Part shown: one piece after another, positions 20,794 through 45,991 of the stretch
Numbering within the stretch: position 1 is the first letter of the stretch
Layout: each line of letters starts with the position of its first letter
NCBI GenBank assembly: GCA_964595045.1
Contig: CAZQOW010000001.1
Span: 9,183-73,182 of the forward strand
Length of the DNA stretch: 64,000 nucleotides
Reading direction: 5' to 3'
From: an uncultured Pseudomonadota bacterium
GTDB lineage: Bacteria > UBA10199 > JADFYH01
The notes under the pieces: generated by a model
The model's input: only the letters and a program-made list of their open reading frames with translations
Database searches by the model: none
Told to the model about the DNA's origin: nothing
Position numbers and translations under genes: made by a program

Positions 20794-21717
20794 ATGAGAA
20801 TTTTGTTTACTGGAGGTTCAAGTTTTTTGGCATTAAATTGGGCTTGTTGTATGAGAGAACAACACGAGATTATACTTTCTACTCATAAAAAAACTATCTT
20901 ATTAAAAGGTGTCAGAACAGTACCTGGAAATTTTGGTTCTTTTGATACCATTCGAGAAAATCTACAAAAAATTCAGCCGGATCTCATTATAAACACTGCC
21001 GCTATTACTAATGTAGATGAATGCGAGCATTATCCAGGAGCAGCTTATGAATTAAATGCTGAATTCACACACCGAATAGCAAAAGCTGCTTTTTTAGAAA
21101 AAATTTCTTTTATTCATATTTCAACTGATCAGCTTTTTGATGGTTCACAATCCTTTATAAAAGAAAATGAAATCCCCTCTCCTTTGAACGTATATGGTAA
21201 AACCAAAGCACTTGCTGAGCTTTATGTATTGCAAGCCGCGCCTACAGCTTTGATTTTGAGAACAAATTTTTTTGCCTGGGGACATAAATTTCGTAATTCT
21301 TTAACTGATTGGATTTTACAAAGTATGAGATCTGATCAAGAGATCAAAATGTTTAAAGATGTTTTTTTCACTCCTATATTGGCTGATAATTTGATTAAAA
21401 CTGCTCATATTCTTCTAGAAGCTAGAGAGAAAGGGATTTTTCATATCGTAGGAGATGAACGAATTTCAAAATATGATTTTGCAATTCGTATTGCAAAAAT
21501 TTTTGGTTTTTCTGAAGGACTTATAATTCCGATTCATCTCGCAGATAAAAAGTTGGCTGCAAGACGCCCTTTTGATATGTCTTTAAATAATCATAAAACC
21601 TGTTCAGCTACTGGTAAATGTCTTGGAGATATTGATATGCAAATCAACGAACTTAAGCTTCAACAAGAGAAAGGTAGAGCCGAAGAGTTAAGAACGGCTG
21701 TGGTAAACAACGTATGA
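20794..21717 (+). CDS. RmlD-like NAD(P)H-dependent sugar reductase (dTDP-4-dehydrorhamnose reductase family)
   Basis: RmlD substrate-binding-domain pattern (ILFTGGSSFLA, NTAAITNVDECE, YGKTKALAE), 307 aa. Glycine motif somewhat degenerate. Confidence 0.55.
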   Translation: MRILFTGGSSFLALNWACCMREQHEIILSTHKKTILLKGVRTVPGNFGSFDTIRENLQKIQPDLIINTAAITNVDECEHYPGAAYELNAEFTHRIAKAAFLEKISFIHISTDQLFDGSQSFIKENEIPSPLNVYGKTKALAELYVLQAAPTALILRTNFFAWGHKFRNSLTDWILQSMRSDQEIKMFKDVFFTPILADNLIKTAHILLEAREKGIFHIVGDERISKYDFAIRIAKIFGFSEGLIIPIHLADKKLAARRPFDMSLNNHKTCSATGKCLGDIDMQINELKLQQEKGRAEELRTAVVNNV

Positions 21718-22706
21718 TTTTAGATGGAAAATCAATCCTGGTAACTGGAGCTACTGGTTCATTTGGAAAACGTTTCATAAAAACTGTTTTAGAAAACCAC
21801 AAACCTAAAAGAATAGTTGCTTTCAGCCGTGATGAGCTCAAACAGTTTGAACTGCAACAGCATTTAAGCTCCCCTATTCTACATTATATGTTAGGTGATG
21901 TTCGCGACAAAGAAAGACTTTATCGTGCAACAGATGGAATAGACTGTGTTGTCCATGCCGCTGCCATGAAACAGGTCCCTTCCTCTGAACATAATCCAAT
22001 GGAAGCAATTAAAACTAATATTATTGGTGCAGAAAATATTATCAATGTTTGTATTGATCAGGGAATTGAACGTGTCATAGCTATGAGCACTGATAAAGCA
22101 GCTAATCCAGTAAATCTTTATGGCGCAACAAAACTATGCTCGGACAAGCTTTTTATAGCAGCAAACGATCTCTCTCGAAAACATCGCACCCATTTTTCAG
22201 TGGTACGCTATGGGAACGTTGTTGGTTCCCGAGGCAGTGTCATCCCTTTTTTCATGAAATGCCGACAAAGTGGCACTTTGCCGATTACAGATGTCCGTAT
22301 GACTCGCTTCTGGATTACTCTTAGTCAAGGAGTACAGTTTGTCATTCGCTCTTTAGAACGAATGAGAGGGGGAGAGCTATTCGTACCAAAAATACCATCC
22401 ATGAATATTATGGATGTCGCTAAAGTCGTAGCCCCAGAGTGTCAGACAGAAATTATAGGAATACGACCTGGAGAAAAGCTTCATGAAATTATGATTACGC
22501 GAGATGATTCAATTCATACTCTTGAATTTGACGACTTTTTTGTTGTTCAACCCTCTGCGGAGTGGTGGAATAAAAAAAATTATAAAGAGGAGTCGGGTGG
22601 CAAACCAGTCCCTGAAGATTTCCAATTTAGCAGTGATCTGAATAATCAATGGATGACAGTTGCAGAGTTAACAGATCTTTTAAAAAGAGAACCAATTGAA
22701 TTATGA
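21714..22706 (+). CDS. pseB: UDP-GlcNAc 4,6-dehydratase/5-epimerase (PseB/FlaA1-type short CapD)
   Basis: KSILVTGATGSFGKRFIKTVL, FSRDELKQ, HAAAMKQVPSSEHNPMEAIKTNIIGAENI, STDKAANPVNLYGATK. Near-collinear with PseB. Followed by a DegT aminotransferase. Confidence 0.8.
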   Translation: MILDGKSILVTGATGSFGKRFIKTVLENHKPKRIVAFSRDELKQFELQQHLSSPILHYMLGDVRDKERLYRATDGIDCVVHAAAMKQVPSSEHNPMEAIKTNIIGAENIINVCIDQGIERVIAMSTDKAANPVNLYGATKLCSDKLFIAANDLSRKHRTHFSVVRYGNVVGSRGSVIPFFMKCRQSGTLPITDVRMTRFWITLSQGVQFVIRSLERMRGGELFVPKIPSMNIMDVAKVVAPECQTEIIGIRPGEKLHEIMITRDDSIHTLEFDDFFVVQPSAEWWNKKNYKEESGGKPVPEDFQFSSDLNNQWMTVAELTDLLKREPIEL

Positions 22707-23941
22707 TTCCCTACGGTCAACACTTTATTGATGAAGAAGATATTCAGGCGGTTGTTGAGCTTTTGCGTACCGGATATCTTACACAAGGTCCAAAAATTAT
22801 TGAGTTTGAAAAAACAGTCGCCCAATATGTAGGGGCCAAATTTGCTGTCGCCACTTCTAGTGGAACAACGGCTCTACATCTTGCTTGTATTGCTGCTGGA
22901 ATTGAACCTGGAGATAATTTAATCACTTCTCCTAATACTTTTGTGGCTAGCTCTAATTGTGCCATTTACGTAGGTGCCATTCCTCACTTTGCTGATATTC
23001 ATCCGGAAACTTTAAATATCGATTCATTCAAACTTAAAGAAAAACTTAATGAACTGGGTCGTGTGAAGGCTATCATACCTGTTCACTTTGCAGGTTTTCC
23101 TTGTGAGATGCCCGTAATCAAAAAAATAGCCGATGATTTGGGCGCCAATATTATCGAAGATGGTGCACACGCTTTTGGCGCATCTTATCCAGATGGGGGG
23201 AAAGTGGGAAATTGTGCCCATTCTCTTATGACGGTTTTCTCTTTTCATCCGGTAAAAATGATTACTTCAGGAGAAGGAGGAATCATTACAACCAATGATG
23301 AGGATTGCTATCGAAACCTTCTACGATTTCGAAGTCACGGCATCAATAAAGGGAATGACCCTTTTATAGATCTTAAGCTAGCATTCGACGAAGGCAAAGT
23401 AAACCCTTGGTATTACGAAATGCAATATTTAGGTTTTAATTACCGTATTACTGATATTCAATGTGCTCTAGCTATTTCTCAAATGAAAAAGCTGGATCAG
23501 TTTGTGATGAAACGTCGTGAAATTGCCATTCGTTACGATGAAGCATTTGCCGATCTTCCTTACTTAATGAAAACGCAAGTGGAAGGAAGAGACTTAAGCA
23601 GTCATCATCTTTATGTAGTCCGTATTCAATTTGAAGAGCTTGGTATTTCTCGGCGTGAATTAATGGCAAAACTAGCCAGTTTGGGAGTTGGGAGCCACGT
23701 TCATTACATTCCGGTACCAATGCAACCTTACTATCGAGAACATTACCAAATTCCGGAAAGAGATTACCGCGAGGCTAATCAATACTATCAAGAAGCTCTC
23801 ACACTACCAATTTTTCCCTCTATGAAAGAGGAAGAGATCAGTAACGTCATCAACTCTGTTAAATCTATTTGTCTGCATGAATATAAAAAATCTCTCAATA
23901 CTGATCGTCGGCTGCGGCTCGATCGGCAAGCGACACGCTAA
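22703..23941 (+). CDS. pseC: DegT/DnrJ/EryC1-family aminotransferase (PseC-like, UDP-4-keto-6-deoxy sugar 4-aminotransferase). 3' end probably about 70 nt shorter than the ORF.
   Basis: SSGTTALHLA, FSFHPVKMITSGEGG (Lys-PLP region), 412-aa ORF. The last ~22 aa overlap the next gene and look like read-through. Confidence 0.75.
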   Translation: MIPYGQHFIDEEDIQAVVELLRTGYLTQGPKIIEFEKTVAQYVGAKFAVATSSGTTALHLACIAAGIEPGDNLITSPNTFVASSNCAIYVGAIPHFADIHPETLNIDSFKLKEKLNELGRVKAIIPVHFAGFPCEMPVIKKIADDLGANIIEDGAHAFGASYPDGGKVGNCAHSLMTVFSFHPVKMITSGEGGIITTNDEDCYRNLLRFRSHGINKGNDPFIDLKLAFDEGKVNPWYYEMQYLGFNYRITDIQCALAISQMKKLDQFVMKRREIAIRYDEAFADLPYLMKTQVEGRDLSSHHLYVVRIQFEELGISRRELMAKLASLGVGSHVHYIPVPMQPYYREHYQIPERDYREANQYYQEALTLPIFPSMKEEEISNVINSVKSICLHEYKKSLNTDRRLRLDRQATR

Positions 23942-24881
23942 AAACCTTCTTCAATGCGGAGTCTACAAAATTTGTGGTGTCGACCCTAACGTTCAACGAC
24001 GGGAGGAAATGTGTTCAATCACAAACACTCAAAGTTTTGCTTCCATGGAAGAAGCTTTGATTAACGATTCTTTTGATGCCGCTTTTATCACATCGCCCAC
24101 TTCTTCGCATATTACAGATGCCTTATATGCTGCCAACTTTAACTGTCATCTCTTTATTGAAAAACCTTTATCGCACAGTCTTGAGCAGCTAAATGAGCTG
24201 ATCGAAATTGTTCGGAGTAGAAGAATTAAGGGACATCTTGGAAGCAATTGGAAGTTTCATCCTTCTTTCAAACGGATAAAAAAAATTCTCGAAAATAACG
24301 AAATTGGAAAACTGCTGTCGGTTCGTTGCCAAGCAGGTCAATATCTTCCCGATTGGCATCCTTGGGAAGATTATCGCAAAGGATACTCAGCCAATAAAAA
24401 AATGGGGGGGGGAATCCTTCTAGATTGTCATGAGTTTGATTATTTAACCTGGTTTGTGGGTGAACCTGAAAAAATTGCCTGTTTTACCGATAAAACAAGT
24501 TCTTTAGAAATTGACACAGAAGATGTCGCTGAAGTGATTCTGAAATTCAAAAACGGTTCTATCGGTGAAATTCATGTAGATTATATTCAACGTGCATACC
24601 AAAGAAATTATGAATTCTTTGGTGAAGAAGGCTCTCTGTTTTGGAATTTCAATTCAAAAAAAGTTCGCCTCTATTTAGCTCGTGATAAGTCTTGGCAAGA
24701 ATGGCAAGAACCGGAAGGTTATGATTTAAATCAAATGTATCTTGATCAAACCTCTCACTTTTTAAATGTATTAGCGGATGAAGAAAAGCCTATTACTCCA
24801 CTGGATCGTGGACGTGATGTACTTTCATGGATCTTAGCGGCAAAACAAGCTTCGGAAAACAACACAGTAATAAGGATATAA
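23877..24881 (+). CDS. Gfo/Idh/MocA-family NAD(P)-dependent oxidoreductase. Contains a G9 homopolymer at 24406-24414.
   Basis: N-terminal LSILIVGCGSIGKRHAKNL Rossmann, EKPL motif (LFIEKPLSHS), 334 aa. Confidence 0.75.
   Translation: MNIKNLSILIVGCGSIGKRHAKNLLQCGVYKICGVDPNVQRREEMCSITNTQSFASMEEALINDSFDAAFITSPTSSHITDALYAANFNCHLFIEKPLSHSLEQLNELIEIVRSRRIKGHLGSNWKFHPSFKRIKKILENNEIGKLLSVRCQAGQYLPDWHPWEDYRKGYSANKKMGGGILLDCHEFDYLTWFVGEPEKIACFTDKTSSLEIDTEDVAEVILKFKNGSIGEIHVDYIQRAYQRNYEFFGEEGSLFWNFNSKKVRLYLARDKSWQEWQEPEGYDLNQMYLDQTSHFLNVLADEEKPITPLDRGRDVLSWILAAKQASENNTVIRI
24406..24414 (+). repeat. G9 homopolymeric tract inside the Gfo/Idh/MocA oxidoreductase CDS (candidate slipped-strand phase-variation site)
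   Basis: aaaaaaATGGGGGGGGGaatcc encodes K-K-M-G-G-G-I in frame. It is the only G-run of 8 or more noticed in the window. Confidence 0.6.
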
Positions 24882-24882
24882 T

Positions 24883-25890
24883 ATGAACTCACTGAAGATC
24901 ATTGCTGAAGTAGCGCAAGGCTATGAAGGAAAACCCGAGCTCGCTGAAATGCTTGTCAAAGGAGCGGCAGCAGCAGGGGCAGACGCAGTCAAGTTCCAGC
25001 TTATTTATGCAGATGAATTGGCAACCCCTGATTATAAACACTTTCAACTTTTTCAATCTCTAGAAATGCAAGATGCTGTTTGGTTGAAAATTGCCTCTCT
25101 CGCTCAAGAAAAAAACATATCTCTCTTTTTGGATGTCTACGGTGCAAAGAGTTTAAAGCTTGCAGAACATATGCAAGTGTCTGGTGTCAAAATCCATAGC
25201 ACTGACATGCAAAATCTCGATCTACTTAAATCGATATCTAAATCAAAAATTCCCCTTATTTTTCTATCGATCAGCGGTTGTCTTCGAGAAGAAGTTCATC
25301 AAGCGATCGAGATCATGGGAGAAAAAAACATTGTTCTTCTCCATGGCTTTCAAAGCTATCCGACACCGATTGAAGCAAATCAAATCAAACGATTATCAAC
25401 GCTCATGACTCAGTTTGGAAACCGAAAAAATATTGGCTACGGGTTCGCAGATCATGTGCCTGTCGAAGATGAACTTCGCTTTACCCTCGCGGCTGTAGCG
25501 ATTGGTTTCGGAGTGAGCTACTTAGAAAAGCATTTGACACTTTCCAAAGTAATGAAACTAGAAGATCACGAGTCCGCCCTCTCTCCGGATGAGTTTTTAC
25601 GCTTTGTTCGCTTCATGAGGCAGTGCCACCAAGCTGTAGGCGAAACTGATCCTCTCAAGGGTGAATTTACAACGAATACTTCAGAACTAGACTACCGACG
25701 AATGACTCATAAACATGTCGTCACCGCACGAAAATTAGAATCCGGGACCCTCTTAACACCGGAGCTTTTGACCTTAAAAAGAACTGCCGCAGCCAATCCA
25801 CTCTATGATATTAAAAGCATCTATGGAAAACGCCTCACTAAAAGTCTGGAGCAGGGGGTAGCCGTTACCATTGAAGTATTGGAGACCTAA
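24883..25890 (+). CDS. NeuB-family nonulosonic-acid synthase paralog (SpsE-like; AQGYEG variant of the AGxNHNG loop) with C-terminal SAF domain
   Basis: IIAEVAQGYEGKPELAEMLVKGAAAAGADAVKFQ aligns with the NeuB N-terminus. C-terminal SAF-like HVVTARKLESGTLLTPELL, 335 aa. Confidence 0.65.
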   Translation: MNSLKIIAEVAQGYEGKPELAEMLVKGAAAAGADAVKFQLIYADELATPDYKHFQLFQSLEMQDAVWLKIASLAQEKNISLFLDVYGAKSLKLAEHMQVSGVKIHSTDMQNLDLLKSISKSKIPLIFLSISGCLREEVHQAIEIMGEKNIVLLHGFQSYPTPIEANQIKRLSTLMTQFGNRKNIGYGFADHVPVEDELRFTLAAVAIGFGVSYLEKHLTLSKVMKLEDHESALSPDEFLRFVRFMRQCHQAVGETDPLKGEFTTNTSELDYRRMTHKHVVTARKLESGTLLTPELLTLKRTAAANPLYDIKSIYGKRLTKSLEQGVAVTIEVLET

Positions 25891-25892
25891 TC

Positions 25893-26639
25893 ATGAAACG
25901 TCGACTTGTCGCCTCTCTTGCCTGCCGTAATAATGGATCACGTCTTTATGGCAAGCCACTTCAAAGAATTTTAGAGAATGTTACTATTCTTGACCAAATC
26001 ATCACTGCACTTAAAACATTTCCAGTCATCGATGAAATTGTTCTTGGTGTTTCTGAGGGGATCGACAATGCAGTTTTCGTCGATATTGCTCATGCACACA
26101 ACATTTCGTATATTTATGGAGACCCTACAGATGTTCTCATGAGGCTCATTCAATGTGGAAGATCCGGTAAGGCAACTGATGTTTTTAGAATCACCACCGA
26201 ATGCCCTTGGTTTGCTTATGATTTGTTAAATATAGTTTGGGAAAAACATATCAAACAAAGCAATGATATTACTGTTTGCGATCGCTTGCCAGAAGGGCTT
26301 CACTTTGAAATTTATACTCTAGATGCATTGGAAAAATCCCATCAAAGAGGAACTTCGAAAGACCGTTCGGAGTTCTGCTCTAATTATCCTCGAATGAATC
26401 CAAAAGAATTCAAAATCGATGTAATATTGCCACCCGAAAAATTTCAACGGATGGATCTCCGCGTCACTGTTGATTATCCTGAAGATTTAATCCTCTGCCG
26501 TGAAATTGCAAAAGCCCATCTTGATTACATGCCGCTCATCTCGGTTGAACAGATTATTAGCTTTCTCGATTCAAGACCCGACTTGAAAGATCTCACAAAA
26601 TCTTTTGTCGTGCCCAAACCTCTCTGGGATGTTTTATAA
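25893..26639 (+). CDS. Cytidylyltransferase, SpsF/PseF-like (CTP_transf_3 family), candidate CMP-NulO synthetase
   Basis: ASLACRNNGSRLYGKPLQ matches the (A)RxxSxRLxGK motif, 248 aa. Immediately downstream of a NeuB-like gene. Confidence 0.6.
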   Translation: MKRRLVASLACRNNGSRLYGKPLQRILENVTILDQIITALKTFPVIDEIVLGVSEGIDNAVFVDIAHAHNISYIYGDPTDVLMRLIQCGRSGKATDVFRITTECPWFAYDLLNIVWEKHIKQSNDITVCDRLPEGLHFEIYTLDALEKSHQRGTSKDRSEFCSNYPRMNPKEFKIDVILPPEKFQRMDLRVTVDYPEDLILCREIAKAHLDYMPLISVEQIISFLDSRPDLKDLTKSFVVPKPLWDVL

Positions 26640-26656
26640 TAGAAAAAATCCAATCG

Positions 26657-27709
26657 ATGAACTATTGGGCGCAAAAAAAAGTTTTTAATTTCCCTTTGCC
26701 TGATCGGCTGGATTTAACCTTGCTGCTCAGAGGAATCCTGGCAATTATGGTTGTCTGGTGGCATACGAATGGTTATCGTATCACTAATACTCCGATTGCC
26801 TTCCTAAATATTGCAGGACGAATCTGCGTTTGGGTCTTTTTCATTTTGTCTGGATATACTATTGGTTATGCTTTTGAGAAAAAACGATATCAATTTAATA
26901 CAAAAGAAATTTTCTATTTCTACAAAAATCGACTGGTCCGAATCTATCCCCTTTTGCTTTTCATTACTGTTTTATCATTTTTCATAAATACCCATTTTAG
27001 CCAAGATCCTATCCCGTGGACTAGTTCCCTATTTATGAAAGAATTTTTGATGCTTCAATGGAATCATACCTATTAACTCGTCGGTGTCTTTTGGGCCTTG
27101 GGAGTCAAAATCCAGTTCTATCTCATCGCACCGCTGTTAGCTTTTATCCTCCAAAAAACGGGAAAGTCATTCTCCATGATTGCCCTTACATTTGCTTTCT
27201 TTTTATTCATACCCACTCTGGCAAAGTTTATTTCTCACTATTCGTGGGTCAATCGATCACTGACAGGAAATTTATCTCATTTTTATGCCGGATTTATTTT
27301 AGATTATTTAATAGACAAAATCGCTCCCTCAAAACTTGATACAATATCACCCATCCTTATTATGCCTCGCCTCTCTTATTATTTTATATTCCACTTTATG
27401 GATGTATCAAAAAAACCAGGTTTGTTTTGGGCTTCAGGACCTCTGTCAGTCGATTTAGCAGGAGTCGGACTTTTAACAGCACACGTTTTATGGGATAGAG
27501 AAAAAATTTCTTTAAGTGGGCTAGCATTCATTCTTTCAACCTTAGAGGTATTTTCCTATGGAATCTATGCCTGGCACGGACTTTTGGTGCAATACTCAGA
27601 TTACTGTGAATCTCATTTTTTCGTTACTCTTTTAGCAACAATCATTCTCTCTATTCTTTCTTATTTTTTGATCGAAAAACCGCTATTGTGTTATCGTCGT
27701 TCCACTTAA
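26657..27709 (+). pseudogene. Acyltransferase-3 (OafA-like O-acyltransferase) gene interrupted by a single in-frame TAA at 27074-27076
   Basis: ORFs 26657-27076 and 27098-27709 are in the same frame (both start positions are 2 mod 3). Across the stop the sequence reads ...QWNHTY*LVGVFWALGVKIQFYLIAPLL, i.e. the conserved acyltransferase-3 W.L..E.QFYL motif. The joined product would be 351 aa and multi-TM. Confidence 0.6.
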
Positions 27710-27715
27710 AAAGTT

Positions 27716-29002
27716 ATGATCCACTATACTTCTTCTGAAAAATTACTTGAGCAAGCTCTAAAAACCATTCCGCTCGGTTCTCAAACTTTTAGTAAAAGCA
27801 AAACTCAATTTCCACTGGGTGTCTCCCCATTTTTCTTGAAAAAAGGACGAGGGTCCCATGTATGGGACGTTGATAGAAATGAGTACATCGATTTTATTAA
27901 CGGGCTGGCATCGATTACTCTCGGCTATTTAGATCCTGATGTGACTTCTGCAGTACAAGAGCAATTGCAAGAGGGAGTTATTTTTAGCCTTCCTCATCCC
28001 ATTGAAATTAAGGTTGCGGAAAAAATTTCTGAGATGATTCCTTGTGCTGAGATGGTTCGTTTTGCCAAAAACGGTTCCGATGCGACCGCAGGAGCAGTTC
28101 GGCTCGCCCGAGCTTACACAAACCGCGATCATATTGCTGTTTGCGGCTACCATGGTTGGCAAGATTGGTATATAGGATCAACCACCCGAAACCGTGGAGT
28201 TCCAAAAGCAACCAGGAAGCTGACGCATACTTTCATTTATAACGACATCGAATCTCTTCATCAGTTATTTTCGAATTACCCCGACTTGATCGCCGCTGTT
28301 ATTCTCGAACCGATGAATGTGACAGATCCATTGCCAGGCTTCTTAGAAGAGGTAAAAACACTCACCCATCGCCATGGTACCCTGTTAATCTTTGATGAAA
28401 CGATCACCGGTTTTCGCTTTGCAAATGGAGGGGCACAAGAGCTCTTTAACGTCGTTCCAGATCTGGCGACTTTTGGCAAAGGCTTGGCAAATGGTTATCC
28501 TCTTTCTGCCATCGCTGGACGTGCTGAAATCATGAAACTGATGGAAGAAATCTTTTTTTCATTCACTTTCGGGGGAGAAACATTATCACTCGCAGCGGCC
28601 CTCGCTGTGATGAAGAAATTACAGCAACAACCGGTCATTAAGCATCTTTGGCAGCAAGGAGAAAAACTCATTCATGGGCTTCGGGAAATCATCCAAAAAA
28701 ACAGACTCGAAGAATTTTTAAGCGTTTCCGGAAAACCGTGTTGGTCATTTCTACTCATCAAAGATACCCCAAAATGCAGCTCATCTGAAATCAAGACTCT
28801 TTTGCTGCAAGAAGTTTTCGCCCGAGGGATTCTGACAGTCGGCACGCACAACATGAGTTATGCTCACTCAAATTCAGATATTAGACGGCTAATGGTTGTC
28901 TACGAAGAAGTGATACCGATTCTAAAAAAAGCAATCGATGGTTTCCCTCTTTCAGATCTTTTACGATGCCATCCTCTCGAGCCACTTTTTAAAGTACGAT
29001 GA
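27716..29002 (+). CDS. Class III PLP aminotransferase, glutamate-1-semialdehyde aminomutase-like
   Basis: FAKNGSDATAGAVRLARAYT, LIFDETITGFRF, TFGKGLANGYP, 428 aa. Confidence 0.75.
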   Translation: MIHYTSSEKLLEQALKTIPLGSQTFSKSKTQFPLGVSPFFLKKGRGSHVWDVDRNEYIDFINGLASITLGYLDPDVTSAVQEQLQEGVIFSLPHPIEIKVAEKISEMIPCAEMVRFAKNGSDATAGAVRLARAYTNRDHIAVCGYHGWQDWYIGSTTRNRGVPKATRKLTHTFIYNDIESLHQLFSNYPDLIAAVILEPMNVTDPLPGFLEEVKTLTHRHGTLLIFDETITGFRFANGGAQELFNVVPDLATFGKGLANGYPLSAIAGRAEIMKLMEEIFFSFTFGGETLSLAAALAVMKKLQQQPVIKHLWQQGEKLIHGLREIIQKNRLEEFLSVSGKPCWSFLLIKDTPKCSSSEIKTLLLQEVFARGILTVGTHNMSYAHSNSDIRRLMVVYEEVIPILKKAIDGFPLSDLLRCHPLEPLFKVR

Positions 29003-31635: not shown

Positions 31636-32193
31636 ATGATAACAAATGATCACTTAATATTCAGAGGCGGCCATCTTCGTGTTTTAAGAGAAGAAGATGT
31701 TCATCAAAGATACGTAGATGGGCTCAATAACTCCCTCGTTAATCGCTATCTTGGTAACGTAAAAAAAACGACGCAAACTCTAGAAACTGTCTCTCAATTT
31801 GTTAAACAAAACCTACAAGATCCACATGGTATCTTGTTTGGAGTTTGGCCAGACAACTCAAAGAACCACTGTGGCACCGTTCGATTACATAGTATTGATG
31901 ATTATCATTTAACAGCGAATATTGGGATTTGTATTTTCGAAACTGACTTTTGGGGACAGGGCATCGGAACCAAATCTATTCAGATCATTACGCAATGGGG
32001 AATAGACACTTTAAAACTTCGCTGGATTGAATCAGGAATTTATATCGACAATAAAGCATCGCAAAAAGCATTCTTAGCTGCCAACTACAAATGGATATGT
32101 GATTTAGAAGGGAAGCATCTCTTCGATGGCTTACCAACTATTACTCGTATTTATGCAGCCCGCAATAATTATTGTGAAAAAAAAACATCCTAA
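31636..32193 (+). CDS. GNAT-family N-acetyltransferase (RimL/PseH-like), second copy
   Basis: 185 aa. LRVLREEDVHQRYVDGLNN then GQGIGTKSIQIITQWGID, an acetyl-CoA binding pattern. Confidence 0.55.
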   Translation: MITNDHLIFRGGHLRVLREEDVHQRYVDGLNNSLVNRYLGNVKKTTQTLETVSQFVKQNLQDPHGILFGVWPDNSKNHCGTVRLHSIDDYHLTANIGICIFETDFWGQGIGTKSIQIITQWGIDTLKLRWIESGIYIDNKASQKAFLAANYKWICDLEGKHLFDGLPTITRIYAARNNYCEKKTS

Positions 32194-37975: not shown

Positions 37976-38009
37976 TACATCCCAAATCTTGTAAGTAAAA
38001 CGATTCAAT

Positions 38010-40269: not shown

Positions 40270-41039
40270 AAGAAATTGAATCTCACTATGAATTTCTTCA
40301 TGAAAAAATTTTCCAAACAAAAACAAAATGGCCACAATTTAAGCGAATGCTCGAGGACGTTCGTGACTTGTCGATTCAACTTCCTCAAAGTTCGAATGTC
40401 ATAATTCTAGAGAGAGCTTATGTCTACGGCGGAAACAGTCTTTTTGCTCCATTATTTCATCAGCATCAAGTGACATCGGTCGATTGTGAAATACCAACAA
40501 CTACGGAACGTAGAGGATATCAAAAATCATGGACTGAAGATCCGCGATGTATTCAAATACCTGCTCAAACAAAAGCTTCAATCACAAAAACTGGACTACC
40601 CCATGCCAGTGCTGACTTGTTGCTTGTCCCTAATGTAGTTCATCACGAACCGGATCAAGAGGGAATGTTCGAAGAAATCGCCCGTCTTCTTCGGCCAGGA
40701 GGAACAGGATATATTTTCGAAGCACTTATAAGAGAATTGCATCAGATTCCTGATGACTACATAAGATATACTCCTTGGGGATTTCAAAAGATACTAGCTC
40801 GTCATGGTCTTGAAATGACTGAATGGAAACCAACAGGTGGTCCCTTTGAGGCAATTTCTTATTGCTGGATACAGGCATTGCAGTTCATTCCTGAAAGTGA
40901 GCGTGGTGAAAAAGAAAAGTGGTTTTTTACTGAGCATCTTCCAGAACTTTTAGAAATGGATAAACGATATACAACAAATATCTCCCGACCACACACTACA
41001 TTTCCAGTTGCCTACTCTATTTATTTTAGAAAGTCTTAA
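40266..41039 (+). CDS. SAM-dependent methyltransferase-like protein
   Basis: LLVPNVVHHEPDQEGMFEEIARLLRPGGTGYIFE resembles the post-motif-I/II region of Methyltransf_11/23 enzymes. 257 aa. Confidence 0.5.
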   Translation: MKEIESHYEFLHEKIFQTKTKWPQFKRMLEDVRDLSIQLPQSSNVIILERAYVYGGNSLFAPLFHQHQVTSVDCEIPTTTERRGYQKSWTEDPRCIQIPAQTKASITKTGLPHASADLLLVPNVVHHEPDQEGMFEEIARLLRPGGTGYIFEALIRELHQIPDDYIRYTPWGFQKILARHGLEMTEWKPTGGPFEAISYCWIQALQFIPESERGEKEKWFFTEHLPELLEMDKRYTTNISRPHTTFPVAYSIYFRKS

Positions 41040-41042
41040 CAA

Positions 41043-41756
41043 ATGTTTTCTCACCTCCCTCCAGCTCTCAAACCGGTATTGGCGTTCATTCCTGCAAGAG
41101 CTGGTAGCAAAGGAGTTCCTAATAAAAATCTTAGAACACTCGATGGAAAAAGCTTAATGCAACTCGCCATAGAATGTGCAAAATCATCCTCTATTTTTGA
41201 CCGTATTGTCGTTTCATCCGATGGAGAAGAAATTCTAAAAGAAGCCACCCGATATGGTGCCGAAACGATTCAACGTCCCCCAGAACTTGCAATTGATAGT
41301 GCCAATATTCTGGATTCAATCACTCATACTCTTCAGTTTTTATTTTCTCAAGGATATCAACCAGCTTCTATTGCACTTTTAGAACCCAGCTCTCCATTTC
41401 GTACACCGGCACTTGTTCAACAGGTAGTTTCCTTATTAAGTGAGCATGAAGCTGCTTTTACAGTAACTGAAGTAGATTTAAAATTTCACCCTGCAAAACA
41501 ATTTATTCTAAATGATCAAAGAATAGCCCTTCCCTCCTGTTCAAATCTGGCTTCTCCAGTGAATCGTCAAGAATTAGACCCAACGTTCATTAGAAATGGT
41601 GGAGTATATGCTTTTCGAACAGAAATGTTTCTTCGAGAAAAATCAGTCTTAGGAAAAAGGCCCCGGGCTTTTATAACAAAGGAAGTTTTGATAAATATCG
41701 ATACGATGGCAGATTATAAACTTGCTCAAAAGCTGATACAAAAAATAAATAAATAA
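41043..41756 (+). CDS. neuA: Acylneuraminate cytidylyltransferase (CMP-NulO synthetase, NeuA/LegF-like)
   Basis: LAFIPARAGSKGVPNKNLRTLDGKSLMQLAIECAKSS...RIVVSSDGEEI aligns with the NeuA N-terminus. 237 aa. Confidence 0.8.
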   Translation: MFSHLPPALKPVLAFIPARAGSKGVPNKNLRTLDGKSLMQLAIECAKSSSIFDRIVVSSDGEEILKEATRYGAETIQRPPELAIDSANILDSITHTLQFLFSQGYQPASIALLEPSSPFRTPALVQQVVSLLSEHEAAFTVTEVDLKFHPAKQFILNDQRIALPSCSNLASPVNRQELDPTFIRNGGVYAFRTEMFLREKSVLGKRPRAFITKEVLINIDTMADYKLAQKLIQKINK

Positions 41757-41760
41757 AACT

Positions 41761-42678
41761 ATGCACAAATTAGCCTTTGTAATTCCAACCAAAGACCGCC
41801 CAAACGACATGCGAGTGATGCTTACAAGTCTTTCTCGTCAGACACTTCTCCCTAATCAGATTATTGTCGTCGATGGAAGTAATCCAGACATTCAATCTGT
41901 CATTAATGAGTTTCCACAATTACATATCGATTATGTCCGTGTTTATCCCCCTTCTCTTGCAAAACAACGCAATGAAGGAATGAAAAAAATAAAGCCTGAA
42001 ATTACGCTTGCTGGATATTTAGATGACGACGTAGAACTTCAACCAAACGCCGTTGCATCGATGATGAACTATTGGGAAAAAAGTGCTCCTGATCTAGGTG
42101 GGACCTGTTTCAATATCGTCAACACCGATCCTGCTCGATGGACAAAAGTTAAGAGTGTTTTTGGCATTGATGGTTCAATTCCAGGAAAAGTTTTTCCCTC
42201 AGGATGCGTCTCTATTCTTGGATATCAATCCGAGGATATAGAAACAGACTGGCTTTGCGGAGGTGCAACCATATGGCGACGAGAAATTATAGAAAATTAT
42301 CCCTATGACGAATGGTTTAAAGGAACCGGGTTCCTTGAAGATGTCGACTATAGCTTTAATGTACGTGAGAAGTATCGCTTGGCTTTGGTAGCTTCAGCGA
42401 AGCTGAGTCACTATAGCCCGCCGATCCGATCCGATCGACATTTTTTGCTTGGGAAGTGGCAAATTGTCAACCGTATGTATTTTGTTAGAAAGTATCGAAT
42501 GAGAGGCCTATCCATTTCCAAAGCGTGGATTGCAAATTTTGGAATGTTGTATTTGAGACTTATTCAGGCTCTTCTTAAGAGGGATCGAAACAGCTGGAAT
42601 CAATTTAGAGGTCATGCAGCTGGTATATGGTCTGAGATTCGCGGTAAAAACGAGCAAATCGGCGGATTCTTGAAATAA
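41761..42678 (+). CDS. Family 2 glycosyltransferase
   Basis: FVIPTKDRPNDMRVMLTSLSRQT...IIVVDGSNPD, DDD motif (YLDDDVEL), 305 aa. Confidence 0.75.
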   Translation: MHKLAFVIPTKDRPNDMRVMLTSLSRQTLLPNQIIVVDGSNPDIQSVINEFPQLHIDYVRVYPPSLAKQRNEGMKKIKPEITLAGYLDDDVELQPNAVASMMNYWEKSAPDLGGTCFNIVNTDPARWTKVKSVFGIDGSIPGKVFPSGCVSILGYQSEDIETDWLCGGATIWRREIIENYPYDEWFKGTGFLEDVDYSFNVREKYRLALVASAKLSHYSPPIRSDRHFLLGKWQIVNRMYFVRKYRMRGLSISKAWIANFGMLYLRLIQALLKRDRNSWNQFRGHAAGIWSEIRGKNEQIGGFLK

Positions 42679-42775
42679 ACATTGATAGAGTTGATAAATT
42701 TTTATTCGCCTATTGGAAAATTTAAATAGCAATGGGAGCAAAACAAATAAAAACAGAGATCGGAGTTTGTAATAA

Positions 42776-43621
42776 ATGAGTATCGTATCCATTTTGAAAT
42801 CAACTCTTAAACCAATAATCCCATCCTTCATATTTCAAAGAACTCATATCATACGTAAAAAAATCCAGAAACTTCGTTTCTCTTTTTTTGAAAAAACTGT
42901 AGACTGTGATGTTTTAGGAAATACAATTAAAATAGGGGTTTCCTCGGATATCGAAAAATACCGCACTGAAACTTATTCCACCAAAGAGCCTGAAACACTG
43001 AACTGGTTAAAAAAGAATCTTCAGGAGGGGGATGTTTTTTACGATATCGGAGCAAATATTGGGCTTTATTCATTATATGCAGCGAAACTTCATCCGCATA
43101 TTAAAATATTCGCTTTCGAACCAGAATCCCAAAACTTTGCAAGACTCTGCAAAAATTTGATTCTCAATCATGCAACTCAAGTAATTCCTTGTAGTTTTCC
43201 TTTAACTGATAGAGAAATATTCGATTACTTTTTTATCAGTGAATTGAAGGCAGGATGTGCCTTTCATGAGTTCGGATCGCCTAATCAATACCGTTGGTCT
43301 AAAGAAACAGAACCGTTCAAACAGGGAGCTTTAGGAGTTTCTTTAGATTGGCTGGTCAACGTTCTTAAAGTTCCGGCCCCCACATTGTTAAAGATTGATG
43401 TGGATGGAATTGAAGAAAAAATATTGGCGGGAGGATCTTCACTAATCACACAAAGGAGCATTCGCTCCATTCTTATAGAAGTGACAGATAACAACGGGGA
43501 AAAAGATCGGGTAATCAACTTATTTAAAAAGGCACAATATCAACTTACAGAAGAAGGCGAAGAGCTGACCACTTCCAATGGATCCAGAAGCCGCAATCTC
43601 ATATTTGATCGAATCTCTTAA
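42776..43621 (+). CDS. FkbM-family methyltransferase
   Basis: FYDIGANIGLYSLYAA motif, FAFEP, IDVDGIEEKIL. 281 aa. Confidence 0.7.
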   Translation: MSIVSILKSTLKPIIPSFIFQRTHIIRKKIQKLRFSFFEKTVDCDVLGNTIKIGVSSDIEKYRTETYSTKEPETLNWLKKNLQEGDVFYDIGANIGLYSLYAAKLHPHIKIFAFEPESQNFARLCKNLILNHATQVIPCSFPLTDREIFDYFFISELKAGCAFHEFGSPNQYRWSKETEPFKQGALGVSLDWLVNVLKVPAPTLLKIDVDGIEEKILAGGSSLITQRSIRSILIEVTDNNGEKDRVINLFKKAQYQLTEEGEELTTSNGSRSRNLIFDRIS

Positions 43622-43637
43622 ATGATTTTAAGATTAA

Positions 43638-45197
43638 ATGAATCTCAGGAAAAACTCAAAAAAAGATTTCATATTTTCATATGCCAAGACCATTGCTTCT
43701 GCCGGCTCCCAGAACCTTTCACTGAACTGGTGGCCAACTTGGCTTTCTTCAAAAAACAGGTACCTCTCTTCAGCTACACGCTATTTTGAAGAAATTTTTC
43801 TTAATGAAAAAACTTTTCATGAACCTCCCAAGAAATTTCGTTACGGACTTGCCCTTATTTCTGCAATTGCTCGCTCGATCAAATGTAGTATAAAACTACT
43901 TTTTCAAATAGGCTTAATGCGTATTAAATATGCATCTCTTACCAAGAGAATAAAAAAAGAATTCAAGGGTAAAGAAGTTTATCTCATCAAGACGTTTGCT
44001 TATAAACATAGTTTTAAGGATAAGTCATTTAGAGATGTTTACTTTGAAACTTTACCACAGCATTTAAAAAAAAGAGGGATTGCGACTCTCACTATTTTTG
44101 ATCCTATTGATTGTTTTAAAGAGACATTCCGTTATGGCTTCGCAAATCTACTAAAAGAAAAAGCCTTACCTTTCTATCTCTTCTGTAACTTCTTTGACCT
44201 TTTAAAGGCTTGGAAATACTTGATTAGAGGTGCTCTTTGCGCCCAATTTCAAAATGTTCTTTTTGGTTCCCAGGATGTATCTTGTGAAATTAAACGCTTC
44301 CATCAAATCGATATGTTGGGAGCAAACTCTCTTTACAGCTTCGTGATTTATTTGGCCTTCTGTAGAATTTCAAAAACTTTCAATTTGAGTCACTTTCTCT
44401 TTACTTTTGAAAATAACCCTTGGGAGCGTTTATGCCAAATCGCCGTAAAAAAGCAAAACCCAAAAACCAAAACTATAGGATATCAACACTCAGTATTAGC
44501 CGAGTCTTCAATGAATATGTTTGCAGGAGAAGGTGAGCTTTCTTACGCTCCTTATCCGGATCGTGTACTGACAGTCGGTTGGGAGACAGCACAAATTATC
44601 AAACAATATAGTGCTGCGCCGCCCCCTTCTCCAGAGCCTGCATGCGCTCTAAGATTTCAATATCTCGAAAAAATGCAGACTCGTTCTGGGCCTGTAACAA
44701 AAACTCTACTCGTCGCTCTAGATGGTGCTCGCGAAGCCTCTCAGGTAATTCATTACATTTTTCAAAACTTATCGGCTTTAAAAGATTGGGAAATAATTAT
44801 TAGAATGCATCCATCTTTATCGATAAGTAAATTAAAAGGGATAAATCTTGATTTTTCTTATTCTAATATTGAACTTTCTAAAAATAGAAAGCTTTACGAA
44901 GATCTAAGTAGAAGTGGAGTTGTTTTCTATCAAGGCAGCTCTGTTGCTCTCGAGGCATTAATGCTTGGTCTTCCGATCATTCATTTTGATACTAATAGAA
45001 TTCTATCCGATGATCCCCTTTTTGCTTGTCCTCACTTAAAATGGATAACCCAACATTCTTCGGCACTTAATAATGTTTTAGAGAATATATTGACTATCCC
45101 CCTTATTTCTCTTAATGAGTCACGTCTGAGAGCTCAAGAATATTTACGTAAATATTTTTATCCGGTCACTATTCAATCAATGAATCTCTTTATTTGA
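43638..45197 (+). CDS. Uncharacterized GT-B-like protein. Candidate NulO/capsule transferase or polymerase.
   Basis: EIIIRMHPS...VVFYQGSSVALEALMLGLPIIHFD is a GT-B C-terminal pattern. 519 aa, no classical motif recognised. Confidence 0.4.
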   Translation: MNLRKNSKKDFIFSYAKTIASAGSQNLSLNWWPTWLSSKNRYLSSATRYFEEIFLNEKTFHEPPKKFRYGLALISAIARSIKCSIKLLFQIGLMRIKYASLTKRIKKEFKGKEVYLIKTFAYKHSFKDKSFRDVYFETLPQHLKKRGIATLTIFDPIDCFKETFRYGFANLLKEKALPFYLFCNFFDLLKAWKYLIRGALCAQFQNVLFGSQDVSCEIKRFHQIDMLGANSLYSFVIYLAFCRISKTFNLSHFLFTFENNPWERLCQIAVKKQNPKTKTIGYQHSVLAESSMNMFAGEGELSYAPYPDRVLTVGWETAQIIKQYSAAPPPSPEPACALRFQYLEKMQTRSGPVTKTLLVALDGAREASQVIHYIFQNLSALKDWEIIIRMHPSLSISKLKGINLDFSYSNIELSKNRKLYEDLSRSGVVFYQGSSVALEALMLGLPIIHFDTNRILSDDPLFACPHLKWITQHSSALNNVLENILTIPLISLNESRLRAQEYLRKYFYPVTIQSMNLFI

Positions 45198-45271
45198 ACT
45201 TTATAAAAGATTGTTTCTCAAAGCATGAAAGACTAATAAAACATTTAAAATAAACAATAGAGGTATGTATT

Positions 45272-45991
45272 ATGATAGCCGCTTTACTTATTGGTCGTAA
45301 AGGAAGTGTCGGATTTCCTGGAAAAAATAGTTATCCCATTAATGGAAAACCTCTGGCATCTTATCCCATGCATGCTGCCAAATCATCCTCTCTTGTAGAT
45401 CATATTTTCATCTCCACTGACTGCGAAAAGCTCATCGATTTGGCCAAGGAAAACGACCTTAAAATTATTAATCGCCCTGATTATCTCGCCACCAGACAGG
45501 CTCTGGGGGAAGATGTCTTTGTTCATGGTTATAAAGAAATCAAGCAACAAATGGGAAACTTAGAGTTTATGGTTCTCCTTCATTGTAACTCTGCAACTGT
45601 TACAGGAAAAATGATAGATGAAGGAATTCAAACGTTGCGCAAAAACCCTTCCTTCGATTCGGCTGTCTCTGTTTCACGTTATAATATGTGGAGCCCATTA
45701 CGTGCCCGAAAAATTGGATCTGATGGACTTTTACATCCCTTCATCCCACTTGAAACTTTTGGTGATCCAAAAACCCTTAATTGTGATCGGGACTCTCAAG
45801 GAGATGTCTATTTTGCTGATATGGGAGTTTCGATTGTACGCTCGTACTGTTTAGAGCATATTGAAGAGGGATTACTTCCTCAGAAATGGATGGGGCAAAA
45901 AATATATCCATTGATCCAAGAGGCAGGATGCGATGTAGATTATGAGTTTCAAATTCCTCAAACCGAATATTGGATTAAGAAAAACTTATAG
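45272..45991 (+). CDS. Acylneuraminate/CMP-Kdo-type cytidylyltransferase (third CMP-sugar synthetase in the locus)
   Basis: MIAALLIGRKGSVGFPGKNSYPINGKPLASYPMHAAKSS...HIFISTD. 239 aa. Confidence 0.75.
   Translation: MIAALLIGRKGSVGFPGKNSYPINGKPLASYPMHAAKSSSLVDHIFISTDCEKLIDLAKENDLKIINRPDYLATRQALGEDVFVHGYKEIKQQMGNLEFMVLLHCNSATVTGKMIDEGIQTLRKNPSFDSAVSVSRYNMWSPLRARKIGSDGLLHPFIPLETFGDPKTLNCDRDSQGDVYFADMGVSIVRSYCLEHIEEGLLPQKWMGQKIYPLIQEAGCDVDYEFQIPQTEYWIKKNL

Follow-up and report, generated by a model that had tools for sequence, protein, structure and literature searches.

A conserved NeuB–cytidylyltransferase–aminotransferase cassette embedded in pseudaminic acid-type gene clusters, and its combination with a probable Neu-type block in one polysaccharide operon of an uncultured bacterium

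How many different CMP-activated nonulosonic acids might be made by a single polysaccharide locus that encodes three NeuB-family synthases, and what is the role of the most divergent of the three? The question is raised by a 64,000-nucleotide stretch of DNA, referred to here as the window (forward-strand positions 9,183 to 73,182 of contig CAZQOW010000001.1, GenBank assembly GCA_964595045.1), from an uncultured Pseudomonadota bacterium. A preliminary description of this DNA, made from its letters alone, had recognized three biosynthetic modules for nonulosonic acids (NulOs), namely a pseudaminic acid (Pse) set as module 1, an SpsE/SpsF-like pair with accessory genes embedded in it as module 2, and a neuraminic/legionaminic acid (Neu/Leg)-type set as module 3. 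Nonulosonic acids shape the interaction of the bacterial surface with hosts, with phages and within biofilms, and to our knowledge only the Neu, Leg, and Pse biosynthetic routes are biochemically defined. Recent mass-spectrometry surveys report CMP-activated ulosonic acids in environmental bacteria that are not explained by known pathways (bioRxiv 10.64898/2026.04.20.719630). The answer given below centers on the divergent synthase of module 2, here called NeuBx, and on the genes that accompany it: a divergent SpsF-type cytidylyltransferase (CTx), a class-III aminotransferase (AT3), and an oxidoreductase. Genes with no name of their own are denoted by their start position in the window.

Results

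The NeuBx gene is part of an obligate cassette within Pse-type clusters

A scan of one genome per species with an alignment of the NeuBx family, after which synteny was mapped by tblastn, recovered a NeuBx-clade gene at 57 loci from at least seven phyla, the carriers being Beta-, Gamma-, and Alphaproteobacteria, Desulfobulbaceae, Nitrospirota, Bacteroidota, Planctomycetota, Gemmatimonadota, and Bdellovibrionota. Among the cultured carriers are Devosia sp. UYZn731, Polynucleobacter bastaniensis, and Zoogloeaceae G21618-S1. Thirty-six of these loci are well flanked, with at least 6 kb on each side of NeuBx, and in them CTx and AT3 are present in every case, an aldo-keto reductase (AKR) in 35, PseI in 35, PseC in 34, an RmlD-like reductase in 27, PseB in 26 (with an identity threshold of 45%), and PseG in 20, while a canonical PseF-like cytidylyltransferase is found in just four. 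CTx lies immediately 3′ of NeuBx in 52 of the 57 loci, and the usual gene order is PseB, RmlD-like reductase, PseC, AKR, NeuBx, CTx, AT3, PseG, a variable N-acylation set, PseI, a GNAT acetyltransferase, and a PFTS-motif protein, where the variable set is either a GNAT, a formyltransferase-like gene, or an ATP-grasp gene with a metallophosphatase and a methyltransferase. The window departs from this order only in having a Gfo/Idh/MocA oxidoreductase in the position that an AKR takes in 51 of the 57 loci. NeuBx, CTx, AT3, and the oxidoreductase are an obligate cassette embedded in PseB/PseC/PseG/PseI clusters, and because NeuBx co-occurs with CTx, AT3, AKR, PseI, and PseC, and seldom with PseF, modules 1 and 2 together make up a single extended Pse-type unit that is conserved. 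The earlier view of module 2 as an independent SpsE/SpsF pathway lodged within module 1 is not borne out by the synteny of the 36 well-flanked loci, which shows that the arrangement is not an insertion specific to the window. The RmlD-like reductase gene at 20794 lies outside the span covered by the preliminary description, yet it is part of the conserved unit, its homolog being the gene found beside PseB and PseC in the 27 loci counted above.

Gene fusions tie NeuBx to CTx more closely still. When CTx was searched exhaustively against 1.84 billion representative proteins, 76 clusters were returned at E ≤ 1e-30, many of which are proteins of 575 to 600 amino acids with a NeuB and SAF region followed by a C-terminal CTx domain. 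Two such fusions (P0270 and P0272) carry an AQG(Y/F)(D/E)G loop and share 40% identity with NeuBx and 51 to 52% with CTx, and there are more than 20 further fusions of a NeuB with a cytidylyltransferase. The fusions speak for NeuBx and CTx running consecutive steps, the synthesis of an ulosonic acid and then its activation with CMP. When 72,556 plasmids were searched with NeuBx by tblastn, no member of the NeuBx clade was found, every match being at or below 30% identity.

Fusions of the opposite polarity were also seen. In a series of Bacteroidota and Planctomycetota loci (L062 to L080; for example 9242–11014 in L068 and 9242–10990 in L073), jackhmmer and tblastn identified proteins of 580 to 640 amino acids with an N-terminal cytidylyltransferase domain and a C-terminal NeuB domain, whose genes adjoin one for a Gfo/Idh/MocA oxidoreductase and, in many cases, one for a TylF-type methyltransferase. 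They seem to form a further system of synthase, cytidylyltransferase, and Gfo-type oxidoreductase, related to the Gfo-NeuBx-CTx trio of the window. A further locus (L085), which holds four NeuB-family genes in total, encodes at 14104–16332 a NeuB domain fused to a cupin-like C-terminal domain (505 to 513 amino acids), followed by a HAD phosphatase.

The three synthases fall into separate clades and differ at their active sites

A neighbor-joining tree was built from 148 NeuB-family sequences, drawn from the open reading frames (ORFs) of the window and of 85 retrieved loci and from four solved structures. In this tree 29475 is placed with PseI (PDB 8h2c), 35994 (NeuB3) with a group that lacks the SAF domain, and 24883 (NeuBx) in a separate clade of 57 sequences. 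The NeuBx clade was monophyletic in 97 of 100 bootstraps of a subset of the tree sequences, whereas the PseI and SAF-less clades received 70 and 73, rough values from a simple Kimura-distance neighbor-joining procedure in which some distances are saturated. The window paralogs are only 24 to 31% identical to one another in pairwise comparison and lie in separate clades, so the outcome that would have counted against the preliminary description, all three paralogs in one clade, did not occur. Published trees have left out divergent NeuB paralogs as being of "unknown specificities" (PMC8053191).

All three window synthases retain K53, Q55, K129, Y186, D214, H215, E234, H236, and D247 (Neisseria meningitidis numbering), and the metal ligands H215 and H236, together with K53, Q55, K129, E234, and D247, are also conserved in all three clades. 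Superimposed on this common framework, the NeuBx clade has eleven replacements that are invariant across its 57 sequences and lie near the substrate and phosphoenolpyruvate (PEP) sites (G27A, I28Q, N29G, H30F/Y, T110D, G131H, G133T, E134D, C182G, N184Q, and S213A), while R314 is kept. Alignment to canonical enzymes confirmed the unusual AQGYEG active-site loop that had been noticed in 24883, the segment AEVAQGYEG replacing the canonical E-x-G-x-N-H-x-G. On the NCBIfam equivalog models NeuBx scores 161 bits for NeuB and 122 bits for PseI, far under both cutoffs. The PseI of the window carries F133 and S184, the published signature of Pse synthases (PMC7371886), and NeuB3 has E25D, P133, E134D, and S184 and is without the SAF arginine. 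Judged by these residues, the three synthases are probably functional, specialized enzymes and not decaying copies.

The cassette genes and the Pse-type set of the window

The genes for PseB, PseC, PseG, and PseI all exceed the curated cutoffs for their families (Table 1), and PseC is the sole DegT-family gene of the window, with no paralog there. The PseH-like GNAT encoded at 28999 shares 37% identity with the GNAT found in a canonical Pse cluster (L082), and homologs of the second GNAT, at 46 to 52% identity, come after PseI in about 15 NeuBx loci. No gene of the window reaches the PseF cutoff of 205.7 bits (TIGR03584), the best scores being 122.1 bits for 41043 and 68.5 bits for 45272, with no match for 25893, and the PseF function is probably supplied by a non-orthologous cytidylyltransferase.

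Within the cassette, the CTx protein by itself has no Pfam match, but iterative search connects it to canonical cytidylyltransferases, and some of its fused homologs, which are 44 to 52% identical to it in the cytidylyltransferase domain, exceed the PF02348 gathering score. The solved relatives of AT3 include aminotransferases that act on the C-6′ position of sugars (aminoglycosides). The Gfo/Idh/MocA ORF has a 65-nucleotide overlap with the 3′ end of PseC. In a Logan contig the same gene was called with a later start, giving 278 amino acids, which would remove the NAD-binding Rossmann domain, and the long start at 23877 is therefore needed for this domain to be intact. Between CTx and AT3 lies an acyltransferase-3 gene that had been described as a pseudogene. 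It is indeed interrupted, although not by a frameshift, which was ruled out, since the gene is a single 350-codon frame with one in-frame TAA (27074–27076), and the Logan assembly has the identical split. Intact homologs of the acyltransferase occupy the same neighborhood in about eight other NeuBx loci.

Module 3 is a conserved six-gene block

The genes of this block encode, in order, a SAF-less NeuB, a NeuC, a GT-B/TagF-like protein, two methyltransferases, and a NeuA-like cytidylyltransferase (CT41). The lack of a SAF domain in NeuB3 might suggest a truncated pseudogene, a possibility that was ruled out because the whole family is about 270 amino acids long; its 613 matches at E ≤ 1e-20 are all of approximately 245 to 293 amino acids. 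A Logan contig from SRR29340322 (L084) preserves the synteny of all six, with identities of 75, 78, 62, 55, 67, and 57% to the window genes, and there the block is followed directly by NeuBx, CTx, AT3, PseG, a formyltransferase, and PseI. An Oligoflexia metagenome-assembled genome (L083) has NeuB3 at 70%, NeuC at 76%, and a 38010-like gene at 53% identity, and it also holds a CT41-like gene, a CT45-like gene, and a NeuBx-like/CTx-like pair. Several proteins of the locus have their nearest named relatives in an Oligoflexia metagenome-assembled genome, which is weak evidence on the source organism, as loci of this kind are exchanged horizontally. A NeuC module is near five of the 57 NeuBx loci. 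The three-synthase architecture of the window therefore recurs in at least two other environmental genomes (L083 and L084), though it is uncommon.

The type of sugar made by module 3 had been left as Neu or Leg, and the present evidence favors a Neu5Ac (N-acetylneuraminic acid)-type over a Leg product. The best PDB match of the NeuC protein is the epimerase domain of human GNE, at 267 bits compared with 205 bits for solved LegG-type enzymes; the TIGR03568 model does not itself tell NeuC from LegG. CT41, which reaches no curated equivalog cutoff, has N. meningitidis CMP-Neu5Ac synthetase (1eyr) as its best PDB match, at 111 bits. There is no LegC in the window, where the only DegT-family protein is PseC, whose LegC-model score of 218.6 bits falls short of the cutoff of 420, and no hexapeptide-repeat acetyltransferase of the LegH type was present among the ORFs of 9.7 to 59.3 kb scanned with Pfam or NCBIfam. 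It is because of the missing LegC and LegH, and of the kinship of NeuC with GNE and of CT41 with CMP-Neu5Ac synthetases, that the Neu-type assignment is preferred.

Candidate CMP-sugar transferases

The proteins encoded at 32126 (PFTS), 38010, and 43638 are the best candidates for CMP-sugar-dependent transferases, one for each block. The description of 38010 as a GT-B-like protein was confirmed by its predicted structure, a two-Rossmann GT-B fold with a predicted local distance difference test (pLDDT) score of 89 and a predicted template modeling (pTM) score of 0.86, and by a profile link to TagF. A word-indexed search detected 21 homologs, some with PF04464, and the profile of this family matches TagF and TarL, although the window protein itself has no Pfam match; a K-P-H-P motif is invariant in the family. 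Homologs of the PFTS protein come after PseI in 22 loci, and PFTS shows a weak profile link to the 38010 family over its C-terminal domain (hhalign E 6e-4, probability 29%). The 43638 protein links weakly to the same family via its counterpart in L083 (617 amino acids, a jackhmmer match only), and pairwise BLASTP among 32126, 38010, and 43638 found nothing. The pattern of one large GT-B-like protein per block is thus shown for 38010 and only suggested for 32126 and 43638.

Architecture of the locus and its other genes

The region from about 9.7 to 59.3 kb is a single co-directional polysaccharide operon of the capsule/O-antigen type, its ORFs running almost all in one direction with minimal intergenic gaps. 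The assignment to this type follows from its frame genes (Wzz-like, Wza/SLBB, RfaH-like, Wzi, Wzy-like, and WecA/MraY-like), among which GT2 and GT4 transferases are also found. All ORFs named in the preliminary description are where it had placed them, on the + strand; ORF, NCBIfam, and Pfam checks found their reading frames intact except for acyltransferase-3, and the presence of several cytidylyltransferase-like genes (25893, 41043, and 45272) was likewise verified. Besides the NCBI contig of 90,344 nucleotides, a second assembly, a Logan contig of 41,336 nucleotides, holds both 24883 and 38010, so that the contiguity of the modules rests on more than one assembly. A promoter and terminator scan of 31 to 50.9 kb gave counts at or below the shuffled expectation, with no sign of transcription units dividing the modules, and Rfam and tRNA scans of the window found no rRNA, other Rfam families, or tRNA.

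Table 1. Features of the locus, with positions in the window and the basis of each assignment
Feature	Start	End	Strand	Basis
Wzz-like protein	9709		-	frame gene
Wza/SLBB exporter	11105			frame gene
RfaH-like antiterminator	17118			frame gene
Wzi	17643			frame gene
UDP-sugar dehydrogenase	19357			frame gene
RmlD-like NAD(P)-dependent 4-keto-sugar reductase	20794	21717	+	TIGR01214 rmlD 172 bits, below cutoff 224
PseB, inverting UDP-GlcNAc 4,6-dehydratase	21714	22706	+	TIGR03589 520.6 bits, cutoff 407.75
PseC aminotransferase	22703	23941	+	TIGR03588 485.9 bits, cutoff 423.5
Gfo/Idh/MocA oxidoreductase	23877	24881	+	Pfam PF01408 and PF22725
NeuBx, divergent NeuB-family synthase (TIM barrel + SAF)	24883	25890	+	PF03102 137.8 bits; SAF
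CTx, divergent SpsF/COG1861-type cytidylyltransferase	25893	26639	+	PDB 6oew "Cytidylyltransferase" E 2e-7 alone, 1e-17 as family profile
Acyltransferase-3 (membrane O-acyltransferase) gene	26657	27709	+	PF01757 matches both halves; in-frame TAA
AT3, class-III (GSA-aminomutase-like) pyridoxal phosphate-dependent aminotransferase	27716	29002	+	PF00202 179 bits; NF004856 (PRK06209) 445.7 bits, below cutoff 486
PseH-like GNAT N-acetyltransferase	28999	29478	+	TIGR03585 59.7 bits, below cutoff 93.1
PseI, pseudaminic acid synthase	29475	30524	+	TIGR03586 491.4 bits, cutoff 340.25; PDB 8h2c E 1e-91
PseG, UDP-sugar hydrolase	30521	31624	+	TIGR03590 306.5 bits, cutoff 153.55
Second GNAT acetyltransferase	31636	32193	+	Pfam PF13302 (Acetyltransf_3)
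PFTS-motif protein, candidate transferase of the Pse-type block	32126	34069	+	TIGR04417 94.4 bits, below cutoff 100
ABC exporter, MsbA/PglK-like half transporter	34075	35829	+	NCBIfam ABC families; 5 hydrophobic segments
NeuB3, SAF-less NeuB-family synthase, 274 amino acids	35994	36818	+	PF03102 212 bits, no SAF; nearest PDB 6ncs (290 amino acids)
NeuC, hydrolyzing UDP-GlcNAc 2-epimerase	36815	37975	+	TIGR03568 396.5 bits, cutoff 235.9
GT-B/TagF-like protein, candidate module-3 CMP-NulO transferase	38010	39407	+	family profile, predicted GT-B fold
Two S-adenosylmethionine-dependent methyltransferases	39376	41039	+	Pfam Methyltransf_23 and Methyltransf_11
CT41, NeuA-like CMP-NulO synthetase	41043	41756	+	PF02348 64.5 bits; PseF model 122 bits, cutoff 205.7
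GT2 glycosyltransferase (41761), FkbM methyltransferase (42776), TIGR04326-like protein (43638)	41761	45197	+
CT45 cytidylyltransferase, then radical-SAM/SPASM protein	45272	47176	+	PF02348 positions 2-122 only
Wzy-like membrane protein	51313			9 segments
LegB-like 4,6-dehydratase and sugar-1-phosphate nucleotidyltransferase (PtmE-like)	53400	55088	+	TIGR04180 464.4 bits, below cutoff 475
WecA/MraY-like initiating transferase	57412			frame gene

Further genes lie downstream of module 3. The CT45 protein is canonical in its N-terminal half alone, where it matches PDB 6ifd with an E value of 2e-13, and it has an ortholog in L083 at 50% identity. The SPASM protein encoded beside it (46034) matches the C-terminal half of the spiro-SPASM model TIGR04321, while 25893 weakly matches the N-terminal half, and by these matches CT45 and 46034 look like a split version of the spirochaete spiro-SPASM fusion protein. 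They are followed at 47177–51262 by genes for a FabG-like short-chain dehydrogenase/reductase (SDR), a D-2-hydroxyacid dehydrogenase, a cyclase/arylformamidase-like protein, an inositol-monophosphatase-like protein, and an SDR epimerase. L083 has a related set at 1504–8634 that includes the CT45 ortholog and a 2-hydroxyacid dehydrogenase at 31% identity; its 313-amino-acid SDR pairs by blastp with 53400 and 56413 and not with 50321, and its 617-amino-acid protein is the jackhmmer counterpart of 43638 referred to above. The LegB-like protein encoded at 53400 shares 45 to 52% identity with the LegB proteins of three Leg-type loci (L066, L072, and L081), and it and its PtmE-like neighbor probably serve another 6-deoxy sugar, not legionaminic acid.

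At the edges of the window, positions 1–3600 have a low GC content (28–34%, compared with 36–43% elsewhere), hold small ORFs only, and lie upstream of housekeeping genes of the ornithine carbamoyltransferase/ArgD-HslU-XerD type, without a tRNA or Rfam match. Two proteins that flank the locus, encoded at 59454–62276 on the - strand and at 14643–15716, may be surface proteins: the one of 940 amino acids has a C-terminal Laminin_G_3/ConA-like lectin domain, and that of 357 amino acids has Big_5 and lamin-tail domains.

Discussion

The interpretation that we favor, with moderate confidence, is that the window combines in one polysaccharide operon an extended Pse-type route that has a NeuBx side branch with a Neu5Ac-type route. 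PseB, PseC, PseG, and PseI, together with the PseH-like GNAT, would make a pseudaminic acid, and the canonical Pse route appears complete but for PseF, because the step of PseH is probably covered by the variable N-acylation set that lies between PseG and PseI. NeuBx may condense PEP with a second aldose drawn from the Pse pathway, and CTx would then activate the product with CMP, as the conserved synteny and the gene fusions suggest. The simplest candidate for the aldose would be the product formed by the RmlD-like reductase from the 4-keto sugar of PseB, or else a 4-amino sugar that is un-acetylated or carries another acyl group. Because it is the lone cytidylyltransferase of the cluster in most genomes, CTx probably takes the place of PseF as well. 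Oxidoreductase–aminotransferase pairs are the usual means of converting a sugar hydroxyl to an amine, and by analogy the oxidoreductase (Gfo here, AKR elsewhere) and AT3 could oxidize a hydroxyl and replace it with an amino group, which the second GNAT could acylate. Such 8-amino chemistry exists in nature, in the form of the Pse-like 8-amino-3,5,7,8,9-pentadeoxy-manno-nonulosonic acid of Flexibacter/Tenacibaculum maritimum (PMC3210612), though the paper on the T. maritimum O-antigen gene cluster makes no mention of NeuB or cytidylyltransferases and so gives no link between the cassette and the 8-amino sugar. In module 3, NeuC, NeuB3, and CT41 would constitute the Neu5Ac-type route, and the methyltransferases of the block may methylate the sugar. 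The preliminary description had inferred two or three CMP-NulOs: two of these, of the Pse and the Neu type, are well supported, and the third, a probably additionally aminated ulosonic acid that the NeuBx cassette would make, is plausible. Its statement that the exact sugars cannot be assigned from sequence holds. As a wider and more tentative proposal, which we put forward with less assurance than the scheme itself, the cassette with the RmlD-like reductase may be the genetic basis of a class of CMP-ulosonic acids that are related to Pse and have an additional or relocated amino group, distributed over at least seven phyla and combined in this bacterium with Pse and a methylated Neu5Ac-type sugar in one polymer.

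Two other ways of relating the cassette to the Pse genes have to be weighed against this scheme. It could be that the cassette makes no second sugar at all, with CTx acting as a non-orthologous PseF, the oxidoreductase and AT3 modifying Pse or CMP-Pse, and NeuBx being a specialized or redundant Pse synthase, so that the locus makes two NulOs. The absence of canonical PseF from 32 of the 36 well-flanked cassette loci fits well with this, as do the Legionella pneumophila Sg6/Sg12 cluster, where an AT3, a cytidylyltransferase, and an AKR occur with one NeuB (PMC3694923), and a Vibrio Pse cluster in which an SpsF-like cytidylyltransferase fused to an AKR was proposed to replace the missing NeuA (PMC7371886). 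A merely redundant synthase would not be expected always to sit beside a normal PseI, however, nor to show eleven replacements at substrate- and PEP-proximal positions that are invariant in 57 sequences, and the frequent NeuBx-CTx fusions bind CTx to the product of NeuBx and not to that of PseI; we regard this alternative as unlikely. At the other extreme, the three modules could be independent pathways to three unrelated CMP-NulOs (Pse, an SpsE/SpsF-type sugar, and Neu/Leg), with module 2 a self-sufficient insert. NeuBx does have its own cytidylyltransferase, aminotransferase, and oxidoreductase, its clade is distinct, and the fusions could be seen as a self-contained unit that makes and activates a sugar. 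The cassette nevertheless lacks a dehydratase, a UDP-sugar hydrolase, and a 2-epimerase of its own, and this, with the near-constant presence of PseC (34 of 36) and PseI (35 of 36) and the missing PseF, indicates that it is tied to the Pse genes and co-inherited with them, making full independence somewhat less likely again than a role confined to the tailoring of Pse.

A separate question is whether module 3 makes legionaminic acid, using the LegB-like dehydratase and PtmE-like nucleotidyltransferase encoded at 53.4–55.1 kb. The dehydratase falls only a little short of the LegB cutoff (464 vs 475 bits), the adjacent nucleotidyltransferase is 30 to 34% identical to those of Leg-type loci, TIGR03568 is neutral between NeuC and LegG, and several NeuB3 homologs have been named "N,N'-diacetyllegionaminate synthase" by the Joint Genome Institute. 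Set against these points are the absence of LegC from the window, with PseC reaching about half of the LegC cutoff (218 of 420 bits), the absence of a hexapeptide-type LegH among the ORFs scanned, the closer similarity of NeuC to human GNE than to solved LegG-type enzymes and of CT41 to CMP-Neu5Ac synthetases, and the occurrence of the conserved block in L083 and L084 likewise without an adjacent LegB or LegC, which together render a legionaminic acid product improbable. Least probable by far is that the additional NeuB and cytidylyltransferase genes are degenerate or inactive, or that the locus is an assembly chimera. The nonsense codon in acyltransferase-3 might hint at this, as might the uncultured source and the fact that all of the proteins are singletons at 90% identity, but the catalytic and metal-binding columns are kept in all three synthases, each synthase belongs to a large conserved family with conserved synteny, the genes are on one contig in two assemblies, and L083 and L084 share the architecture, so that this explanation is largely refuted by the tests made here.

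Several observations weigh against the extended Pse-type scheme or the Neu-type assignment joined to it. The identity of the NeuBx aldose, the carbon that AT3 would aminate, and the direction of the redox step are guesses, and AT3, given its resemblance to glutamate-1-semialdehyde (GSA) aminomutase, could be a mutase in place of a transaminase. If CTx is dedicated to the NeuBx product, as the fusions indicate, most of the clusters are left without an assigned activator of the PseI product, which is awkward. The acyltransferase pseudogene is a sign of some decay in the locus. NeuB3 lies under the NeuB equivalog cutoff (228.5 vs 399.65 bits) and matches no published Neu, Leg, or Pse residue signature, having P133, D134, and S184, for which reason the Neu-type assignment of module 3 is provisional. 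The transferase role of PFTS and 43638 is proposed by position only, and a single-sequence AlphaFold model of PFTS was unusable, with a pLDDT of 31. Finally, the scheme gives no explanation for the fourth block, centered on CT45 (45272–51262), which contains no synthase, and the LegB-like/PtmE-like pair lies further downstream, outside the span from which the three modules were first described.

The locus exhibits similarity to several known systems, none of which has the same composition. Relative to the Pse pathway of Campylobacter jejuni and Helicobacter pylori (PseB, PseC, PseH, PseG, PseI, and PseF), orthologs of PseB, PseC, PseG, and PseI are present above the curated cutoffs along with the PseH-like GNAT, whereas no gene reaches the PseF cutoff, and the RmlD-like, oxidoreductase, NeuBx, CTx, and AT3 genes are interleaved. 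The Shewanella pathway to Kdo8N, in which KdnB oxidizes the ulosonic acid and KdnA then transaminates it, shares with the cassette the logic of a synthase, a cytidylyltransferase, an oxidoreductase, and an aminotransferase that lead to an extra amino group. This is a resemblance of mechanism only, as the Shewanella enzymes belong to unrelated families (an iron-alcohol dehydrogenase and another aminotransferase class), the product is an eight-carbon sugar, and no Pse genes are involved. The sps genes of Bacillus subtilis likewise pair a NeuB-family synthase with a COG1861/SpsF-type cytidylyltransferase, which is genetically needed for legionaminic acid transfer (PMC7439481), and among solved structures NeuBx matches SpsE (1vli) best. 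Identity between the two is only about 27%, however, the active-site loop of NeuBx is remodeled, and the sps genes include no class-III aminotransferase or Gfo/AKR partner and have legionaminic acid as their sole NulO. The Legionella Sg6/Sg12 locus (PMC3694923) is a Pse-type cluster that lists PseG, a class-III aminotransferase, a cytidylyltransferase-like gene, an AKR, a DegT protein, and CapD, and in the cluster of Vibrio sp. B9-25K2 (PMC7371886) the cytidylyltransferase-AKR fusion stands in place of NeuA; each lists one NeuB, and the genes were annotated and not analyzed as a unit. With regard to the candidate transferases, 38010 shares a profile match, a predicted GT-B fold, and the K-P-H-P motif with the TagF/TarL teichoic acid polymerases, GT-B-like enzymes that use CDP-alcohol donors. 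Identity is about 11%, and the donors of both would release CMP.

Multiple NulOs in one organism are not in themselves unusual. C. jejuni makes Neu, Leg, and Pse, and multi-synthase loci are known from Leptospira, so that co-localization alone is not new. The NulO cluster of Leptospira interrogans contains several synthases and CMP-NulO synthetases and more than one aminotransferase, from which the production of more than one NulO was deduced (Ricaldi et al. 2012, PMC3438082). The window shares with Leptospira some families that are typical of surface-sugar loci there, among them TIGR04326, and the solved structures 6ncs and 6oew are the nearest relatives of its proteins, but the Leptospira cluster combines Leg and Neu with a synthase-phosphatase fusion and is not Pse-based, whereas the window has three synthase clades and the NeuBx cassette. 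The "unusually dense co-localisation" of the preliminary description is therefore real and, in view of L083, L084, and the Leptospira clusters, not unique. What has not been described, as far as the literature search shows, is the NeuBx-CTx-AT3-oxidoreductase cassette, obligately associated with Pse genes that lack PseF; the search did not find the cassette described as a unit (a NeuB with a class-III aminotransferase, an SpsF-like cytidylyltransferase, and Pse genes), only incidental annotations in Legionella and Vibrio.

If the cassette merely replaces PseF and decorates Pse, the window would be an ordinary gene-rich polysaccharide locus. As a discrete, conserved set of four to five genes, it is nonetheless a candidate for the biosynthesis of those CMP-ulosonic acids that have no assigned genes, and, depending on its actual function, it would represent a fourth kind of NulO chemistry or a novel means of activating and tailoring pseudaminic acid.

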